Of a stretch of 35,682 bases of DNA, positions 7,922-22,129 are shown piece after piece. Each line of letters begins with the position of its first letter. Position 1 is the stretch's first letter. The notes below the pieces were generated by a model, which searched no databases, had not been told where the DNA came from, and worked only from the letters and a program-made list of their open reading frames with translations. This DNA comes from a virus. Taxonomy: Duplodnaviria; Heunggongvirae; Uroviricota; Caudoviricetes. The position numbers were made by a program, and so were the translations under genes. The stretch is from the IMG/VR virus record IMGVR_UViG_3300028591_000112, positions 95,934-131,615 of that record, one strand, 5' to 3'.

Positions 7922-8013
7922 GCGGGTATACCCAAGTTCGGCTGAAGGGGGCTGCCTACTAAGCAGCTAGGTCGTTTTTTGATGCGAAGGTTCGAATCCT
8001 TCTGCCCGCGCCA
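7922..8013 (+). tRNA. tRNA-Ser(ACU)
   Basis: Long variable arm, G73; arm gctgc-ctactaa-gcagc. Confidence 0.9.
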
Positions 8014-10339: not shown

Positions 10340-10376
10340 TCTTAGGGGCTTAGTGTAATGGCAGCACATCGGTCTT

Positions 10377-10981
10377 AAGCTAAAATAAAAAGGAGTAAAA
10401 TTATGGATACAATAACAAAAGGAAGACTAGGATATAACCTATTAGAAAAAGAATTACTTAAAAGAGAATTTGAAATTTATATTCCTTTATTAGAAAATAC
10501 AAAAATAGATTGTATAATTTGTAAAAATGGAGTATTACTAAAATTACAAATTAAAACAATTCAAATAGATAGAGGATATAAAAAACTTCCTGTTAGAAAG
10601 ATTAGTCATAATCAAGGAGAGTATAAAGTTCATAATTATACCTCTGATGAAATAGACTTCTTTATTGGAACTGATGTAGAAACAGAAGATTTATATATAG
10701 TTCCTATTTCAATAATAGAACAGTATAAATCTGCAATTTCAATTAAAACATTAGAACCTTATAAAAATAATTTTACTCTATTGGAGCCTCAAGTTGGAAA
10801 CAATTTGAGTGGATGCGATGATATCGGTGAAACCTTAACTGGTAATACCGAGGGAATAGAATAATATTCTAGCCCGTAGAGAGTAGATAATCGCACACCT
10901 AAGTTAGAAATAATATGGTGAAGATGTACTCCAGACCACAAACTACAGTATCCAGTAGGTAGTGAAAACTATAGTGGCAAG
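10377..10981 (+). mobile_element. Group I intron after U34 of tRNA-Trp(UCA)
   Basis: Guide ttggag, P2 ctcaagttg/caatttgag, atcggtgaaa, aataccgag, gtagagagta, aagatgtactcc, terminal G. Confidence 0.9.
10403..10864 (+). CDS. Intron-encoded PD-(D/E)XK homing endonuclease (I-Ssp6803I-like)
   Basis: TKGRLG...IP.....IDCII...KLQIKT...YTSDEIDFF. Confidence 0.85.
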   Translation: MDTITKGRLGYNLLEKELLKREFEIYIPLLENTKIDCIICKNGVLLKLQIKTIQIDRGYKKLPVRKISHNQGEYKVHNYTSDEIDFFIGTDVETEDLYIVPISIIEQYKSAISIKTLEPYKNNFTLLEPQVGNNLSGCDDIGETLTGNTEGIE

Positions 10982-11097
10982 CAAAACCGTAAGAGCGGGG
11001 TCTCCAAAACCTCGGGTGTGGGTTCGAGTCCTACAGCCCCTGCCATGAGTTTTTAACGAGTTGTTCGTTTATTAATACATTTAGAAAGAGGGATAGT

Positions 11098-11449: not shown

Positions 11450-11491
11450 GAATAAAGGGGGCGTGGCGGAATCGGTAGACGCACAGGACTT

Positions 11492-12268
11492 TGTTCTAGT
11501 TTACAAAACCACACACAGAGCACTTAAATAGGAAACTTTTAAGTGAATGATGGCTAATTCGGCGAAAGACTTATTAAGTTAACGCCGAGCTAAATATTTT
11601 TGGGCAAACGCTTTAAAAATGTAGACATATTTTTCATAATAATATAAGAGGTGAAAATTATGGCATTACAAAAATACACAAAAGAATGGTTAGAAGAACT
11701 TTGTAAAGATAGTTTTTCATTAGCAGAAGTGTTAAAAAAAGCAGGTCGTAAACAAGGTGGAGGTAACCAAGAAACATTAAAGAAAAAAATTCAAGAATTT
11801 GATATTGATATTTCACATTTTACAGGACAACTTTGAAATAAAGGAAAAACAAAAGAAGAAGATAATAGAATAAAAAGTAATGAAAAATATTCATTAGAAG
11901 AAGTATTTTGTAAAAATAGTCCTGTAACGCAAAAGGTTTTACGTGGTTATGTAGAAAGACACAATATTTTAGAATATAAATGTGAAACCTGTGGATGTGA
12001 TGGGCATTGACAAGGTGGAGAAATTTCATTAGAAATAGACCATATTAATGGAGATAATACAAATAATACAAAAGAAAATCTTAGATATTTATGTCCTAAC
12101 TGTCATGCATTAACAGAAACTTATCGTGGAAAAAATAAAGCATTAAAAGCTCAAAAGTTAAATGTGTAGAGACTATACACCATCCACCTAAGTCTTTATA
12201 AGATATGGTGAAGACATAGTCCAGACTACAACGCGATTTCCGCGGCTATAGTAATATAGAGTAGTAAG
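11492..12268 (+). mobile_element. Group I intron in tRNA-Leu(UAA)
   Basis: P1 ctttgt/acagag, aattcggcgaaa, aacgccgag, gtagagacta, aagacatagtcc, terminal G; same U34^A35 site as cyanobacterial/plastid trnL introns. Confidence 0.93.
11660..12169 (+). CDS. Intron-encoded HNH endonuclease (code 4, 169 aa)
   Basis: Reads through two TGA; CETC...LEIDHINGDNTNNTKENLRYLCPNCH. Confidence 0.9.
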
Positions 12269-12339
12269 AAAATCCTGCGAGGTTAATCCCTCATGTGGGT
12301 TCAAGTCCCACCACCCCCACCATTTTTAGGAGGTAAGAT

Positions 12340-13587: not shown

Positions 13588-14034
13588 GGGCTTGACAAGG
13601 TTTCGACTAGCATATTAGAATATTAGAATACAGGCGGTAGGCAGCTACCTTAAAGAGCAATAATAAAAATAAATGACAACATTTTAACAAAAATTGTTAA
13701 TAAAGTTAAATCTTTATTCTCTATTAATAGAGTAGTATTCGCGTAATACTAAACAACTTCTATACAAGTATCAGGATACAATCAGAAAAAGTATAGTCGT
13801 ATTAACGAGCAAAGATTGTCGCATATGAACTGTCTTATGTCGTGGAAAATATGTTGAACTACTTAATACATAAGCCTTTGTTGTTGAGTTTTACCAATAG
13901 GGTGCAGTTTTTATCATAGGATATAGTAAAAGGAGAGAATTAATAAAATTGGTCAAAGCTTGTAAGGTAAGAATGAGATTTCTGATATATCAATATGGTC
14001 TAGGACGCGAGTTCGATTCTCGCCAGGTCCACCA
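13588..14034 (+). ncRNA. ssrA: tmRNA; predicted tag (A)DNILTKIVNKVKSLFSINRVVFA at 13675-13746
   Basis: 5' gggcttgacaaggtttcgac; 3' gacgcgagttcgattctcgccaggtccacca; G3-U70; ataaat-GAC resume context. Confidence 0.95.
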
Positions 14035-14145
14035 TTTGTTTCGATAGCTCAGTAGGTAGAGCAATGAATTAAATATTTTAATAGACCATTAGAGTTGTGG
14101 TCAGATGGTTATAATTTTTATATCTCTATTTTTATATATAGTAAT

Positions 14146-14221
14146 GAGGGTGTAACTCAGTTGGTAGAGTAACGGACCTTTAATCCGTGAGTCGAGAGTT
14201 CGAGTCTCTCCACCCTCACCA
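14146..14221 (+). tRNA. tRNA-Lys(UUU), C33 variant, nested inside the split tRNA
   Basis: Arm acgga-cctttaa-tccgt; CCA. Confidence 0.92.
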
Positions 14222-14247
14222 TTATGAAAATGAAGGGAGATATAAAA

Positions 14248-14673
14248 ATGAATAGCAAAGATAAAGGTAATATTGGTGAAGCTATTGTTTTAGCAGAGTT
14301 TGCAAAAAGACAAATTCAAGTAGCAATTCCTTTTGGAGATAATGCTAGATATGATTTAATAGCAGATTTTAATGGCAAATTAAATAAAATACAAGTAAAA
14401 TATTGTGGACAAATTACAGAAAATAATTCTTTTACTTGTCCTTGTGCAAGTAGTACAAATCATACTACTAATAAACATTTATCTACTTATGAAAATGATG
14501 TAGATTATATGGCATTTTATCTTGTATCTATTGATAAATTATTATTAGTTCCAATAAAACAATTAGAAGGTAAAAAAACTATTACTTTTAGATTAGAACC
14601 ACCAAAAAATGGACAACATATAGGAATTAATTTAGTAGAAGATTATTTATTAGATAAAATTATAAATATTTAA
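14248..14673 (+). CDS. PD-(D/E)XK homing endonuclease (I-Ssp6803I-like), no intron core seen
   Basis: KDKGNIGEA...IPFGDNARYDLIAD...KIQVKY...YENDVDY. Confidence 0.88.
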   Translation: MNSKDKGNIGEAIVLAEFAKRQIQVAIPFGDNARYDLIADFNGKLNKIQVKYCGQITENNSFTCPCASSTNHTTNKHLSTYENDVDYMAFYLVSIDKLLLVPIKQLEGKKTITFRLEPPKNGQHIGINLVEDYLLDKIINI

Positions 14674-14713
14674 TCAAAGGGTCGAGAGTTCGAATCTCTC
14701 TCGAGACACCATT

Positions 14714-14818: not shown

Positions 14819-15043
14819 ATGGCACGTTATTCTAGTCTTTTAAAACAAAAGATGCAAATTATTGCTATTGAAATAATCTAGAGCGATTTTTAAAAAGTTT
14901 GAAGTGTAGTCTCAGTGGTAATCAAGTCGTAGAAAATATTTCTACCACAAAAGTAAAACGAAAGTGCAACCCTAGTAATAGGCTGTCTTTTGTGAGGAAA
15001 ACTTACTTGACCTAAGCTACAGAATTACTTTTTAAAATGCCAT
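14819..15043 (+). ncRNA. Putative structured ncRNA (~225 nt)
   Basis: Nested helices atggca/tgccat, tttaaaaagt/actttttaaa, tcaagt/acttga, cacaaaag/cttttgtg, gtagaaa/tttctac. Confidence 0.55.
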
Positions 15044-16555: not shown

Positions 16556-17443
16556 ATGGCAAACACAGAAATATTTAAAATTTTATCTAATTATAAAAAA
16601 ATATTAGAAGAAAAAGGTTATAATGTTATTTATATTGGTTTATATGGTAGTCAAAATTATAACTTAAATGATGAAAAGAGTGATATTGATGTAAAGGCTA
16701 TTATTCTTCCAACTTTACATGATATTATTTTTAGAAAAGTTACAAGCACTACTATTGAATGTCAGCAAGGAAATATTGACGTTAAAGATTTATTAACTTT
16801 CTATGATGTAATTAAAAAAGGAAATTTTAGTTATATAGAAAGTATTCAAACTAAATATTCAATTGGAGATAAATATATAAAAGAATTATTTAGTCAATTT
16901 GAAGTCAATAAAAAAAGTATTTTAGGAGCTATGTATGAAAAAAGAAAAGCATTAACTCATGCATATCCAAGTAAAGTTCAAGAATTTGAACAATGGGGAT
17001 TCGATCCGAAACAACATCATCATATTTTAAGATTATATGATTTACTTGCATATAATTATGAATATGGAGCTAATAAAAGTTTTTTAACTTATATAGATGG
17101 TTCAGAAAGACAACAAGAATTAATTGCATATAAAAGAAATGCAAACAACATAATGAAAGATATTATTGAAAAAGATAGTGATGAAATTATTGAAAAAGCA
17201 AAAGAATTAATTGAAGATGATTATTCTTTTGAAATTATTAATATAGATGAAGAAATTAATGCTTATATTGAAAATAAAATAAAATTAGAAGTAAATAATA
17301 CATCAGTTTCATATGCTAGACAAATTAGAACTTTTGATAACGATATTCCAAAAGGAGATTTAAAAAAATTCCCTGCTTTAGAAAAATATCAAGGACAAGA
17401 TATTTCTTATATAGTATATGAAAGCATAGAAATATTAAATTAA
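16556..17443 (+). CDS. Pol-beta superfamily nucleotidyltransferase
   Basis: YIGLYGSQNYNLNDEKSDIDVKAI = hGS...DxD motif. Confidence 0.85.
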   Translation: MANTEIFKILSNYKKILEEKGYNVIYIGLYGSQNYNLNDEKSDIDVKAIILPTLHDIIFRKVTSTTIECQQGNIDVKDLLTFYDVIKKGNFSYIESIQTKYSIGDKYIKELFSQFEVNKKSILGAMYEKRKALTHAYPSKVQEFEQWGFDPKQHHHILRLYDLLAYNYEYGANKSFLTYIDGSERQQELIAYKRNANNIMKDIIEKDSDEIIEKAKELIEDDYSFEIINIDEEINAYIENKIKLEVNNTSVSYARQIRTFDNDIPKGDLKKFPALEKYQGQDISYIVYESIEILN

Positions 17444-17499
17444 TTTTAAAAATAAATTGATTTTATTAAAAAATTATTATATAATATATATGTAATAAA

Positions 17500-17820
17500 G
17501 AAAAAGAAGGCACTAGGGAAGCGAACCCTGCCACTACCAAAATTAGATACGATTTGCGGATTTAATGATTATCAAATCATTAAAACGCTAGAGTAAGCCC
17601 TATATTTTTATATAGGTGGCGAGAAATCCTTGCGCGGGAGCAATCTTTTTGAGGCGTCGTGTGTACAAAAAACACTGGTTGCAACATATATAATCTATAC
17701 TTTTATAGTGTAGATTGACTGTGGGCCTCAGGCACAGGATAAATATGGGCGAGGTAGAGTCTTAAGGTAATAGCAGTATCCGTGGGTAGACGGCTTTAGG
17801 AGAACTCAAAAACTGCTTTT
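17500..17820 (+). ncRNA. Putative structured ncRNA (~320 nt)
   Basis: Promoter TTGATT(17457)-17-TATAAT; no ORF; helices tttaatgatt/aatcattaaa, aatctatac/gtgtagatt, gccac/gtggc, agcagt/actgct. Confidence 0.55.
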
Positions 17821-17825
17821 TATAT

Positions 17826-17943
17826 ATCAGGTCGGAACTGGTGTTGATGGACTTATTGAAATAGTATAAGACATAGGGTTTGATTCCCCCGATAAATACC
17901 TTTAAAAGATTTTAAAGCAAGGTTCGATTCCTTTCTACCTGAT
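17826..17943 (+). ncRNA. tRNA-like RNA with two T-arm motifs
   Basis: atcaggt/acctgat closing stem; ggg-tttgatt-ccc and aagg-ttcgatt-cctt. Confidence 0.5.
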
Positions 17944-18036
17944 GGTAAAAATCTTAATTTTTATTATTTTTAGTTATATTATATACTAATATAACTATAT
18001 TATATGTATACATATATTAATTAGGTTACGACCAAT

Positions 18037-18230
18037 CCTGCACCTAAATGACAAAACGCGGGAGACCGTTTGGGTAAACATGATGCCAGCCAACGGGGAA
18101 GAAAATGTACCTACGCGGAGCGGGTTATAGCAGACCTCCGCCGTTGAAAAAGCCGTCCTATTGCTGTAGAAGGTTAGTCAGCCGAAATAGGAGAGCCAAT
18201 ATACCTCAAAAAGTATATTAATATTGCAGG
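18037..18230 (+). ncRNA. Putative structured ncRNA (~195 nt)
   Basis: cctgca/tgcagg, aaacg/cgttt, caacgg/ccgttg, gcggag/ctccgc, tcctatt/aatagga; terminator follows. Confidence 0.55.
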
Positions 18231-18382
18231 GCAGGTATCTGTCCTTTTTTGATTTTATAAAATAATTATGATATAATATTATTAATATAGAAAGAAGGTA
18301 GTTTATATGATAAATCCAAAAACTTGGTCAAGTTTAAAGATTTAACATAAATTATTTTTAATATATATTAGGAGGAGATATA

Positions 18383-19153
18383 ATGGCAAAAGCGATTGAT
18401 TTAACGAATCAAAGATTTGGGAAACTTCTAGTGTTAGAAAGAGATTATGAAGAAGCAAAAAAACATCCTAATGAAAGACAGGCTTGATGGAAATGTCAAT
18501 GTGATTGTGGAACTATAAAATCTTATAGAGCATCAGTTATAAAAAAAGCAACATCTTGTGGATGTGAAAAATATACAAATAAAAAACCTTTAACAGAAGA
18601 ATGGAAACGACATATTAGTGAAGGATTAAAAAATACGAATAAGAGAAAACCTATTCATAAAAGTCCTTTAAATTTAATTGGACAAAGATTTGGTTTGCTC
18701 ACTGTTTTAGAAGAAACAGATATTAGAAAAGGAAAATGTGTTGTATGAAAATGTAAATGCGATTGTGGAAATATAACTTATGTAATAAGTAATTCTTTAA
18801 CTAAAGGAGATACAAAATCATGTGGATGTATAAAATCTTATGGAGAATCGAAAATAGGGAAGATATTAAATGAAAATAATATTCCCTTTGAAAAAGAAAA
18901 ACAATTTGATAGTTGTAGATTCCCAGATACAAATAAAATGGCAAGATTTGATTTTTATGTAAATAATAAATATATTATTGAATTTGATGGAAAACAGCAT
19001 TTTGAAATTAATAATTTTTTTGAACAGTCATTAAAAGAAATTCAAGCTCATGATAAATTCAAAAATGAATGGTGTAAAAATAATAATATTCCTATTATTA
19101 GAATACCTTATTACAAAATAAATAATTTAACAATAGAAGATTTAATATTATAA
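18383..19153 (+). CDS. Free-standing homing-type endonuclease with two WxCxCDCG repeats and C-terminal Vsr/DUF559-like domain (code 4, 256 aa)
   Basis: DLTNQRFGKLLV...W-KCQCDCG...SCGC unit twice; RFDFYV..IIEFDGKQH; two in-frame TGA. Confidence 0.85.
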
Positions 19154-19167
19154 AGGAGGAGATTGAT

Positions 19168-20382
19168 ATGTTAAATATAAAAGGAGGACGCGAACTTGCT
19201 TATGTAGTTAATATAGATAAAATTGAACCAATAGTAGGTTCAGATAATTGTGAATGTGCTATTGTAGGCGGATGGCGTATAATGGTTCGTAAAAATACAT
19301 TCAAAGAAGGAGATAAAGCTGTCTATTTTGAAATTGATTCAAAATTACCTGAAACAGTAGAATGGTCTCAATTTTTAATTAAAAAGCATTATAGAGTAAA
19401 AACTCAAAAATATACTTTTGGTGGTGCGGGAAATTTTATTTCTCAAGGTTTATTAATGTCTTTTGCAGATTTTGGTTGGGATAATGAACAATATCAAGTT
19501 GGAGATTTTTTAACTGAAATATTAGGAATAACTTATGCTATTGCAGACGATAATAAAAGAAAAGCAGAAGTAGATAAATATACTAGAATGAAACAAAGAC
19601 ATTATGAATTATTTAGAAAAAATAAATTAATTCAATGGTTATTTAAAAGAACTTGGGGTAAAAAATTATTATTTATCTTTTTAGGTAAAAAAAGAGATAG
19701 TGCTAGCGGATGGCCAGTTGGAAAATTCCCAGGGGTAGCTAAAACGGATCAAGAGAGATGTGAAAATATGACTTGGGTTTTAGAAGATAAAACTCCATAT
19801 ATAGTAACTCAAAAATGTGATGGTTCATCTGGTACTTTCATATTAGAAAGAAAACATTTAGGTAAATATGAATTTTATGTTTGTAGTAGAAATGTAAGAA
19901 TGTTTAAACCAGAACAAACATGCTTTTATGGAGATAATAATTATTATTGGGATGTTGCTATTAAATATAATATAGAAGAAAAAATGAAAAAATATTTACA
20001 AGAAAATAAAGATATTAATTTTGTTTGCTGGCAAGGAGAAATATGTGGACCTAATATTCAAAATAATCCGCATAAATTACAAGAATTACATTTATTTTGC
20101 TTTCATATGACAGATAGTAAAAATGGTAGATATGATATCCGCGAAGCTAAAAAAATATGGGATAAATATGAAATGGAAACTGTTCCTATTGTAGATACAA
20201 ATTTTATTTTACCTGATGATTTTGAAGAATTTAAAAAACAAGCAGATGGATTATATGATGCTTCTGTTTGTGAAGGTAATGAAAATTGTGTAAGAGAAGG
20301 TTTTGTATATTACAAGACTACAGATCCAACTTTCTCATTTAAAAATGTATCAAGAGAATACTTAATTGGAAAAGGCGAATAG
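19168..20382 (+). CDS. ATP-dependent RNA ligase, DRB0094/Rnl2-like
   Basis: RELAYVV...VYFEIDS N-domain; motif I TQKCDGS, VCSRN, QGEICG, REGFV, SFKNVSREYL. Confidence 0.92.
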   Translation: MLNIKGGRELAYVVNIDKIEPIVGSDNCECAIVGGWRIMVRKNTFKEGDKAVYFEIDSKLPETVEWSQFLIKKHYRVKTQKYTFGGAGNFISQGLLMSFADFGWDNEQYQVGDFLTEILGITYAIADDNKRKAEVDKYTRMKQRHYELFRKNKLIQWLFKRTWGKKLLFIFLGKKRDSASGWPVGKFPGVAKTDQERCENMTWVLEDKTPYIVTQKCDGSSGTFILERKHLGKYEFYVCSRNVRMFKPEQTCFYGDNNYYWDVAIKYNIEEKMKKYLQENKDINFVCWQGEICGPNIQNNPHKLQELHLFCFHMTDSKNGRYDIREAKKIWDKYEMETVPIVDTNFILPDDFEEFKKQADGLYDASVCEGNENCVREGFVYYKTTDPTFSFKNVSREYLIGKGE

Positions 20383-20439
20383 CCTTTTTTATTGTTTTTT
20401 TAATTATTTTATGATATAATATTTATATAAGAAAGGAAA

Positions 20440-20637
20440 ATGTATATGGAAACAATAAAATATTTAATTAAAACTATTGCAGTGTGTTTGCTATTCTTCT
20501 TATTTATTCTTATGATGCATAACGCAGCTCGTAATATAAATAAAAATCAAATAGAACACTGCAAAAGAAATGGCGGATATGTTGTTCTTGGACAACATGA
20601 CTGGTTTGAAAGTTGTATATATGAAATAGAAAAATAA
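20440..20637 (+). CDS. Small membrane protein
   Basis: Promoter, RBS, one hydrophobic helix. Confidence 0.65.
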   Translation: MYMETIKYLIKTIAVCLLFFLFILMMHNAARNINKNQIEHCKRNGGYVVLGQHDWFESCIYEIEK

Positions 20638-20655
20638 AAAGGAGAGGAATAAAAT

Positions 20656-20913
20656 ATGAGAAAGTTATTTAGAAAAATTACATTAAGAAAATTTGCAAAT
20701 TGTTTAGATGAAAAAACATATAATGATTTTATGGAAATACGTGGTTTTTTAGTTATTTACAAAAATCATACTTGGGTTCGTGCAATGGATACCATTGAAT
20801 TAAAAATGATAATAGAAAAAGATGCTGATAAAATAGAATGTATTTTTGCAGATATAGATAAAATAAAATTAGACACAAAAATAATTATAGATACTGATAA
20901 AATAGAAAAATAA
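20656..20913 (+). CDS. Hypothetical protein
   Basis: GGAGAGG RBS. Confidence 0.7.
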   Translation: MRKLFRKITLRKFANCLDEKTYNDFMEIRGFLVIYKNHTWVRAMDTIELKMIIEKDADKIECIFADIDKIKLDTKIIIDTDKIEK

Positions 20914-20929
20914 AAAGGAGATGATTATT

Positions 20930-22129
20930 ATGACAAATGTAAAAATATTTACAGATAATATAGAGGGCGAAGCATTAAATCAAATATATACTTTAGCTAA
21001 ATTACCTGCATTTGATAATGCAAAAATTCGTATTATGCCAGATGTTCATGCGGGAGCTGGATGTGTGATAGGTTTTACTGCGGATTTAGGTAATAAAGTA
21101 ATTCCTAATATTGTTGGAGTGGATATTGGATGCGGAATGCGCGTTATAAAACTAGGAAATATAGATATAGACTTCGAAAAGCTAGATCGAATCATCCGTG
21201 AGCAGGTTCCCGCAGGTCATGAAGTTCATAATAAAATCTCTTTAGAAATAGATAAAAAATATATAGATAAATTGATATGTAAAAAAGCATTAAGAGATAA
21301 AGACCGTTTAATGGCATCTCTTGGAACTTTAGGTGGCGGAAATCATTTTATAGAAATAGATAAAGATGATGAAGGCTGTAAATATTTAGTAATTCATACA
21401 GGTTCTCGTAATTTAGGAAAACAAGTTGCAGAAATTTATCAAAATCAAGCAATTATGAATTTATCTCCTAAAAAAGATTATTCTAAATTATCTCAAGAAT
21501 TAATTTCTACATATATACAACAAGGAAGACAAACTGAAATACAACTTGCTCTTGCAAAATTACGTTCTGACCTTGATACATTACAACCTAAGATACCTAA
21601 AGAATTAAGTTATCTTGAGGGGGCAGCAAGAGAAAATTATCTATTTGATATGAACATATGCCAAGAATTTGCTGTTGCTAATAGAGAAAAAATTGCAAAT
21701 ATAATTTGTACTGAAATGAATTGGAATAAAATAGAAGAATTTGAGTCTATTCATAACTATATTTCTTTTAAAGATAATATTGTTAGAAAAGGAGCTATTT
21801 CCGCATATAAAGGACAAAAAGTAATTATCCCAATGAATATGCGTGATGGTTGTATAATAGGAATTGGAAAAGGAAACTCAGACTGGAATCAATCTGCTCC
21901 ACATGGAGCTGGAAGAATCATGTCACGAGCTGCCGCAAAATCTTCAATTAAACTACAAGATTATGAAAAATCTATGCAAGGTATATGGACTTCTACTGTA
22001 AATGAATCAACTATAGACGAGTCTGCATTTGCATATAAACCAATGTTAGAAATAATTGATAACATAAAAGATACTGTTGAAATTATAAATATTATTAAAC
22101 CAATATATAATTTCAAAGCAAGTGAATAA
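20930..22129 (+). CDS. rtcB: RtcB RNA ligase
   Basis: MPDVHAG, VGVDIGCG, GTLGGGNHFIE, HTGSR, RKGA, SAPHGAGR, DESAFAYK. Confidence 0.97.
   Translation: MTNVKIFTDNIEGEALNQIYTLAKLPAFDNAKIRIMPDVHAGAGCVIGFTADLGNKVIPNIVGVDIGCGMRVIKLGNIDIDFEKLDRIIREQVPAGHEVHNKISLEIDKKYIDKLICKKALRDKDRLMASLGTLGGGNHFIEIDKDDEGCKYLVIHTGSRNLGKQVAEIYQNQAIMNLSPKKDYSKLSQELISTYIQQGRQTEIQLALAKLRSDLDTLQPKIPKELSYLEGAARENYLFDMNICQEFAVANREKIANIICTEMNWNKIEEFESIHNYISFKDNIVRKGAISAYKGQKVIIPMNMRDGCIIGIGKGNSDWNQSAPHGAGRIMSRAAAKSSIKLQDYEKSMQGIWTSTVNESTIDESAFAYKPMLEIIDNIKDTVEIINIIKPIYNFKASE

Follow-up and report, generated by a model that had tools for sequence, protein, structure and literature searches.

A phage tRNA-Lys gene interrupted at its anticodon by a candidate homing cassette with a nuclease gene and a spare tRNA-Lys

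Introduction

What kind of element splits a tRNA gene at its anticodon and brings along a second, complete tRNA of the same isotype? This question is raised by a lysine tRNA gene that lies in two halves around an insert of ~600 bp holding a spare tRNA-Lys and a nuclease gene. The locus lies in a 35,682-nt stretch of DNA, referred to here as the window, from a circular contig of 131,615 bp with a 71-bp terminal repeat and a G+C content of 28%. Since related loci are found on viral contigs, we read this genome as that of a phage; besides a tmRNA and a large tRNA array, its genes include those for RtcB, an RNA ligase and a sigma factor. Coding cover across the genome was 0.84 with translation table 4 vs 0.69 with table 11, a rise that makes it likely that the phage reads TGA as Trp, and an HNH frame in the genome becomes open under table 4. 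Sequencing runs that had both the region and a habitat label came for the most part from sheep, cattle or goat gut, and 525 nt of the tmRNA were matched with 0 differences in a sheep-gut RNA run.

Results

Anatomy of the broken gene and its insert

The features of the locus are listed in Table 1. In the outer gene, 14038-14044 pairs with the 3′ strand directly before the ACCA at 14708-14711, giving an acceptor stem of 7 bp that includes one G-U pair. A preliminary description had placed the two halves at 14038-14067 and 14669-14711, and halves of a tRNA-Lys are indeed present, matching the exons of a related locus, L010, at 26/26 and 41/41 positions, but the identity of the left half stops at 14063. 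The nested tRNA-Lys(UUU) and its CC-UUU-AA loop, also described there, were recovered by ARAGORN and Rfam, and this spare is the sole intact tRNA-Lys among 28 ARAGORN calls in the 131.6-kb genome, differing from the spliced resident type at 24/76 positions. The reported overlap of the nuclease stop codon with the old anticodon loop holds as well, with the TAA (14671-14673) falling on positions 36-38 of the old tRNA.

Table 1. Features of the interrupted tRNA-Lys locus, in window coordinates.
Feature	Positions	Strand	Evidence
Phage tmRNA, upstream synteny marker (context outside the element)	13588..14034	+	Rfam RF00023, E 1.7e-16, 45.4 bits, slightly below the gathering score
Resident tRNA-Lys(UUU) 5′ half, positions 1-26	14038..14063	+	L010 5′ exon, 26/26; runs on uninterrupted in the X4 contig
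Damaged remnant, 5′ anticodon stem strand; loop bases 32-33 gone	14064..14067	+	Unlike L010 and the X4 allele
Inverted-repeat left arm, 10-11 bp, A/T-only; right arm is the nuclease gene end, 14664-14674	14068..14078	+	
Conserved spacer with small hairpin (14084-14102) and TGGTC ... TATA-like motif	14084..14142	+	TGGTC invariant in 8 aligned cassettes
Intact replacement tRNA-Lys(UUU) with CCA, loop CC-UUU-AA	14146..14221	+	ARAGORN; Rfam, 69.7 bits
PD-(D/E)XK (PF11645) homing-endonuclease gene, 141 aa	14248..14673	+	Ribosome-binding motif 14233-14239
Resident tRNA-Lys 3′ half: anticodon TTT, AA, 3′ stem strand, T arm, acceptor strand, CCA	14669..14711	+	14671-14711 identical to L010 3′ exon, 41/41

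The spacer motif is a probable promoter, from which the spare tRNA and the nuclease would be expressed. Similar motifs were found upstream of the intron HNH gene and of an ORF that we take to belong to a GIY-YIG-like family, with no enrichment across the genome (8 matches vs a null mean of 3.6 and maximum of 9). The inverted repeat is 10 bp long in the window, 8 bp in L008 and 13 bp in L012 when each arm is paired within its own locus, vs 4-9 bp in cross pairs, and no left-junction repeat was seen in the remaining six nested loci. It may have been left by template switching at a near-palindromic break, may help folding, or may be due to chance in A/T-rich DNA. Chance or misassembly is an unlikely source of the layout as a whole, because it recurs in 8 further contigs with different outer tRNA genes ("shells") and because, in a contig of run X2, this 3′ half is again joined to a nuclease gene related to the window's.

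The insert encodes an I-Ssp6803I-like endonuclease

The nuclease gene is the only ORF of at least 40 aa in the insert, and the insert thus holds no integrase. Its product matched PF11645 (PDDEXK_5) with an E-value of 1.6e-30 and 106.4 bits, above the curated cut-off of 26.1, and its only PDB match was 2OST (E 2e-5), which we take to be I-Ssp6803I; the family assignment first made by eye was therefore confirmed. The start codon is most likely at 14248 (141 aa, P0001), and the frame is free of TGA codons. The YD and QVK motifs align to 2OST, with N in place of the first acidic residue, and the D, Q and K, whose roles we assume to be catalytic, are invariant or nearly so among 16 relatives. We calculated dN/dS values of 0.12-0.20 against the four nearest relatives, indicating that the ORF is under purifying selection. 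A protein search returned 786 relatives, dozens of them above 85% identity.

Three alleles occupy one site

The locus is found in three states: empty (X4), filled by a group I intron with a nuclease gene (L010), and filled by the cassette (window). In L010 and in the X4 contig the tmRNA sits at the same place as in the window. L010 has the same tmRNA end and exons identical to the window's halves, split inside the anticodon by the intron, whose nuclease is nearer to the window's than any other (88% aa and 85% nt identity). The empty allele, which would be expected in relatives if the insert is mobile, is represented by a single short contig of 82 nt from DNA run X4, in which the gene runs on uninterrupted behind the same tmRNA; it matches 14000-14063 with one other letter and two gaps and extends 20 nt beyond the junction, where the anticodon arm is intact. 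When viral contigs were scanned for exact patterns of the empty allele, one scan returned an unrelated tRNA-Asn and the other nothing, and runs X7 and X8 had nothing on the locus. Filled alleles (window, L010) and an empty one (one X4 contig) are thus seen at one syntenic site, as in homing elements. That the outer halves are still identical to the L010 exons points to recent arrival or to some retained role.

The layout recurs in nine shells

Four scans yielded 124 loci (6, 41, 68 and 9), many of them on the same contigs, and the flanks of 62 were read; at 53% identity or above, each locus was either read or was an apparent duplicate of one that was. We classified the contexts of 30 non-redundant clade members by hand, in a tally whose rows are related and not phylogenetically independent: nine were nested (window, L008, L012, L013, L017, L054, L055, L056 and L063), four lay within group I introns that occupy the same anticodon site (L010, L015, L018 and L025), and 14 lay beside an intact tRNA-Lys(UUU). 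The last three (L020, L049 and L014) had one context each: behind a Lys gene that a different insert interrupts, with just a 5′ half, and with no Lys gene within 500 nt. Acceptor strands differ among all nine shells, whose isotype is certain in two cases (window and L012) and deduced from loop remnants in the others. Right junctions fall at tRNA positions 34-38 in 9/9 loci, and left junctions range from ~26 to 35; positions 32-33 are also missing in L008, L013 and L017.

A spacer motif was common to the eight cassettes picked for alignment, and the seven aligned carried tRNAs were 56-95% alike. The spacers and tRNAs of L055, L056 and L063 differ from the others, which makes it probable that such cassettes were put together more than once. 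The carried tRNA-Lys of L055 (L055:1380-1470) and L056 (L056:1399-1470) have an odd D arm and T loop, and that of L055 was missed by ARAGORN. In L049 (L049:1330-1483), a 78-nt tRNA-shaped insert splits a tRNA-Lys-type gene at the anticodon, and the nuclease lies outside, directly downstream.

A sister group of nucleases (34-50% identity) is found mostly with tRNA-Asn(GUU), likewise intron-borne or adjacent to the gene, so that target and nuclease clade match. Among cultured phages, 15 records carried relatives at 29-40% identity, and none of the five that were read had the nested layout. In the Enterococcus phage EFP01 (L182:429-964), the anticodon loop of a tRNA-Asp(GUC) holds a related nuclease gene and no nested tRNA, and no intron core was found in this insertion; in L043 (L043:2411-2958), a related gene lies in a tRNA-Asn-like anticodon loop, again with no nested tRNA and with no core seen by eye. 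These two insertions possibly represent a bare form of the element, which in EFP01 would be present in a cultured phage.

No group I intron core in the nested inserts

Rfam found no core in the insert, yet it was also blind to the ORF-split introns of L010, L015 and L025, and we therefore replaced it with our own profiles of the two core halves, built from seven intron loci with L010 held out. As positive controls, these profiles matched L010 (E 1.8e-26 and 6.3e-23), the tRNA-Leu intron of the window (1.8e-6 and 3.5e-14) and, in its 3′ half only, the tRNA-Trp intron of the window (2.3e-4). They matched none of the nine nested inserts nor L020 (best E 1.5), which bears out the earlier statement that the insert has no group I core. 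The ORF-less intron of L011 shares the core motifs and was scored by Rfam (Intron_gpI) at 49.6 bits (E 7e-12) against a gathering score of 50. Together with the empty allele, the absent core supports the earlier reading of the insert as a selfish cassette that does without splicing.

These profiles also bear on the possibility that the locus is a product of local decay, in which an L010-like ancestor gained a tRNA-Lys by chance and lost both ribozyme halves, leaving an immobile scar. The insertion point is that of the introns, the L010 nuclease is the nearest to the window's, and partly degraded relatives exist, L121 having a trimmed intron 5′ core and no 3′ core and L125 a truncated nuclease. 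Decay would, however, have to erase the intron as far as the 3′ splice site repeatedly, and repeatedly pick up a related spacer and tRNA in different shells, and all nine nested loci are free of any core trace (best E 2.1 or worse). We consider it improbable.

A cassette that would replace the tRNA it breaks

Our main reading, to which we give a probability of about 0.8, is that the insert is an intron-less cassette, with a spacer followed by an entire spare tRNA-Lys(UUU) and then a PD-(D/E)XK nuclease gene, that sits in the anticodon of a dead tRNA-Lys gene and spreads by homing, the nuclease being predicted to cut and the spare to replace the broken tRNA and escape cutting. When a co-infecting phage has the uninterrupted gene, the nuclease would cut it in the anticodon arm, the cassette would be copied in during repair, and the spare, avoiding cutting through its different anticodon arm, would stand in for the lost tRNA-Lys. 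Since no splicing is needed, the left junction could become ragged as the 5′ half decays, with the right junction held at the anticodon loop. Group I introns at this site carry the same nuclease lineage too, so that splicing and replacement are likely to be vehicles that it can exchange for one another.

The predicted target is the anticodon arm of the uninterrupted tRNA-Lys gene. I-Ssp6803I recognizes a ~23-bp site across an anticodon arm and leaves 3-nt overhangs. Over such a site, the spare and the empty allele differ at 9/23 positions, and a scan of the genome for the 23-bp empty site found no site with fewer than 5 mismatches. By hand tally, a G30-A31/T39-C40 stem was present in 11/13 invaded genes (L012 does not fit, and L056 was unreadable and counted as a miss), while the same stem with a normal loop was present in 3/23 carried genes (Fisher p 4e-5) and in 10/25 distinct unrelated phage tRNA-Lys genes (Fisher p 0.05), p values that overstate the case since the tally rows are related; the invaded genes can be scored on the stem alone, by which 6/23 carried genes match. 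The supposed core is present in the spares of L011, L016 and L017, and the gene invaded in L012 lacks it.

There appear to be two routes of escape, of which a loop change to C33 is the rarer, most carried tRNAs differing in the stem. C33 is found with the stem kept in 3/23 carried or adjacent tRNA-Lys (window, L003 and L026) and in 0/25 of the background set. The altered CC-UUU-AA loop that had been proposed to protect the spare is thus present, but it is probably not the main route, as eight of the nine differences from the empty site lie outside position 33.

The C33 change, recurring in L003 and L026 and absent from the background, could also be taken to mean that the cassette is kept for a tRNA-Lys variant that resists host anticodon nucleases, with the DNA nuclease as a helper or hitch-hiker. 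In the parts of the sources consulted, tRNA-Lys(UUU) is a known target of PrrC (PMC10264068), and tRNA genes are amplified by SegB against defences (PMC13096335). Such a swap leaves the same-isotype anticodon insertion, the intron alleles and the parallel Asn clade unexplained, which makes it unlikely as the main explanation, though the benefit is compatible with homing by a replacement cassette, as a second one.

The outer gene is most likely dead

We considered 82 rejoins of tRNA length between the outer halves, and none gave at least 4 stem pairs with an xU-UUU-AA loop; the best Lys-type rejoins in the window had 3 stem pairs and a UA-UUU-AA loop. As a control, rejoining L010 gave a perfect 76-nt tRNA-Lys. 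RNA runs X3 and X5 (one sample, contigs only, by which absence cannot be shown) covered the tmRNA and an OLE-like region with 0 differences; among the matches listed, there was no joint across the insert and no high-identity piece of the nested tRNA or nuclease. It is very improbable that the insert is instead a protein-spliced intervening sequence, in which the repeat would lengthen the anticodon stem, a nuclease cut the insert out and either RtcB or the RNA ligase of the phage rejoin a working tRNA, since even though the phage encodes both enzymes, the predicted precursor fold closes the outer cloverleaf around the insert, and L012 has complete exons and the 13-bp repeat, 0/82 rejoins restored a proper Lys arm, L008, L013 and L017 lack positions 32-33, and a complete spare would be superfluous.

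A likely change of vehicle in the nuclease lineage

We built a tree from the 30 non-redundant rows and four Asn-linked outgroup rows, with five near-duplicate or outgroup rows left out, in which bootstrap values have not yet settled and the deep branches are not fixed. The 30 rows formed one clade against the Asn-linked outgroup (support 100/99). Within it, the window, L008, L009, L011 and the intron-borne L010 grouped together (100/97), separate from L015 and L018. Placing the four intron nucleases in one group was rejected by the AU test (p=0.027), for a group set by context and in a test made after the tree was seen. In its intron core, L010 is 77-84% similar to the other Lys introns, and its nuclease is 85% like the window's gene vs 71-74% like the other Lys-intron nucleases. 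A sliding-window test of the L010 nuclease gave no clear mosaic; it was nearest to the window's gene over most of its length, with the first third uninformative.

As the intron nucleases do not form one clade, one lineage likely alternates between splicing and replacing, and the nuclease likely changed vehicle at least once, in either direction. We tentatively suggest, with somewhat more doubt than confidence, that replacement homing is a third vehicle besides introns and inteins, that an isotype-fixed clade shuttles between ribozyme and spare-tRNA cassette at one and the same anticodon, and that such cassettes are a reservoir of nucleases for tRNA group I introns. If that were so, L010 would represent the capture of a nuclease by an intron.

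Discussion

Comparison with known systems

The following comparisons draw on parts of the cited accounts. I-Ssp6803I is a tetrameric (PMC3943268) PD-(D/E)XK homing endonuclease of a group I intron in the tRNA-fMet gene of Synechocystis PCC 6803 (PMC1995217). The window's nuclease resembles it in Pfam family, size, match to the 2OST sequence and insertion at a tRNA anticodon, but it interrupts a phage tRNA-Lys, has no ribozyme around it and is accompanied by an entire spare tRNA. Comparable in logic are the mobile endonuclease ORFs of fungal mitochondria that bring a replacement C-terminus, as in Allomyces atp6 and Glomus atp6, atp9, cox2 and nad3 (PMC3630166): there too, an intron-less nuclease supplies the part that keeps the gene functional and strands the native end. 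In the fungal ORFs, however, a fragment fuses to the resident 5′ part of a protein gene, whereas in the window a complete, separate tRNA gene is nested in a dead one. In the tRNA-dependent lysogeny of mycobacteriophages, a tRNA-Lys(TTT) is destroyed and complemented by the phage's own tRNA of the same isotype (PMC10865867). The window element likewise breaks a tRNA-Lys and brings the same isotype, but lysogeny involves a whole phage, a tyrosine integrase and the host chromosome, whereas here a 600-bp element with a nuclease only resides in a phage genome. As far as these accounts go, the element would work like the fungal replacement ORFs and tRNA-dependent lysogeny, and what was found in it matches neither a group I intron nor an integrase element.

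In the same partial coverage, SegB of T4 and T6 is a GIY-YIG nuclease that lies between genes and recognizes a T-loop motif of many tRNAs with no isotype preference, and in collaborative homing a free-standing nuclease and an intron converge on one site (PMC2330249, PMC2988022, PMC13096335, PMC3984707). The window's nuclease resembles SegB in lying outside an intron, in a phage tRNA cluster, and differs from it in that the element is inside its presumed target and linked to one isotype. No account of a nuclease cassette that carries an entire tRNA into the gene it targets turned up in a literature search that covered few subscription papers. This locus contributes the PD-(D/E)XK family, three alleles together, and a likely switch of vehicle. 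How homing nucleases met group I introns is described as an open question (PMC3984707, in the part consulted); one locus with three alleles, near-identical flanks and a small enzyme makes the pre-adaptation model testable on short DNA substrates. The element would also offer a selfish explanation for tRNA gene swaps and anticodon-arm divergence in phages, for which the explanation given elsewhere is escape from host tRNases. Only the spare tRNA shows up in the output of annotation tools; the scar does not.

Other features of the tRNA array

Several further observations concern the window around this locus. RNA-repair genes adjoin the tRNA array at 16556-22129 (a weak nucleotidyltransferase match, an RNA ligase and RtcB). 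A partial match to OLE RNA (14888-15037, 91.2 bits) is present in L010 too, and an RNA-run contig spans 14816-15054 with 0 differences. A tRNA-Ser at 7922-8013 has the rare anticodon ACT. The tRNA-Leu(UAA) at 11457-12322 is interrupted by a group I intron with an HNH nuclease (11660-12169), whose frame passes through TGA codons. Finally, the tRNA-Trp (10344-10376 and 10982-11045) has two anticodon arms (UCA, followed by CCA) and is interrupted by a group I intron that encodes a second PF11645 nuclease (10403-10864); the two-arm tRNA-Trp was found with no intron in 10/10 viral contigs matching the pattern, and the sequence in L171 is that of the window's exons.
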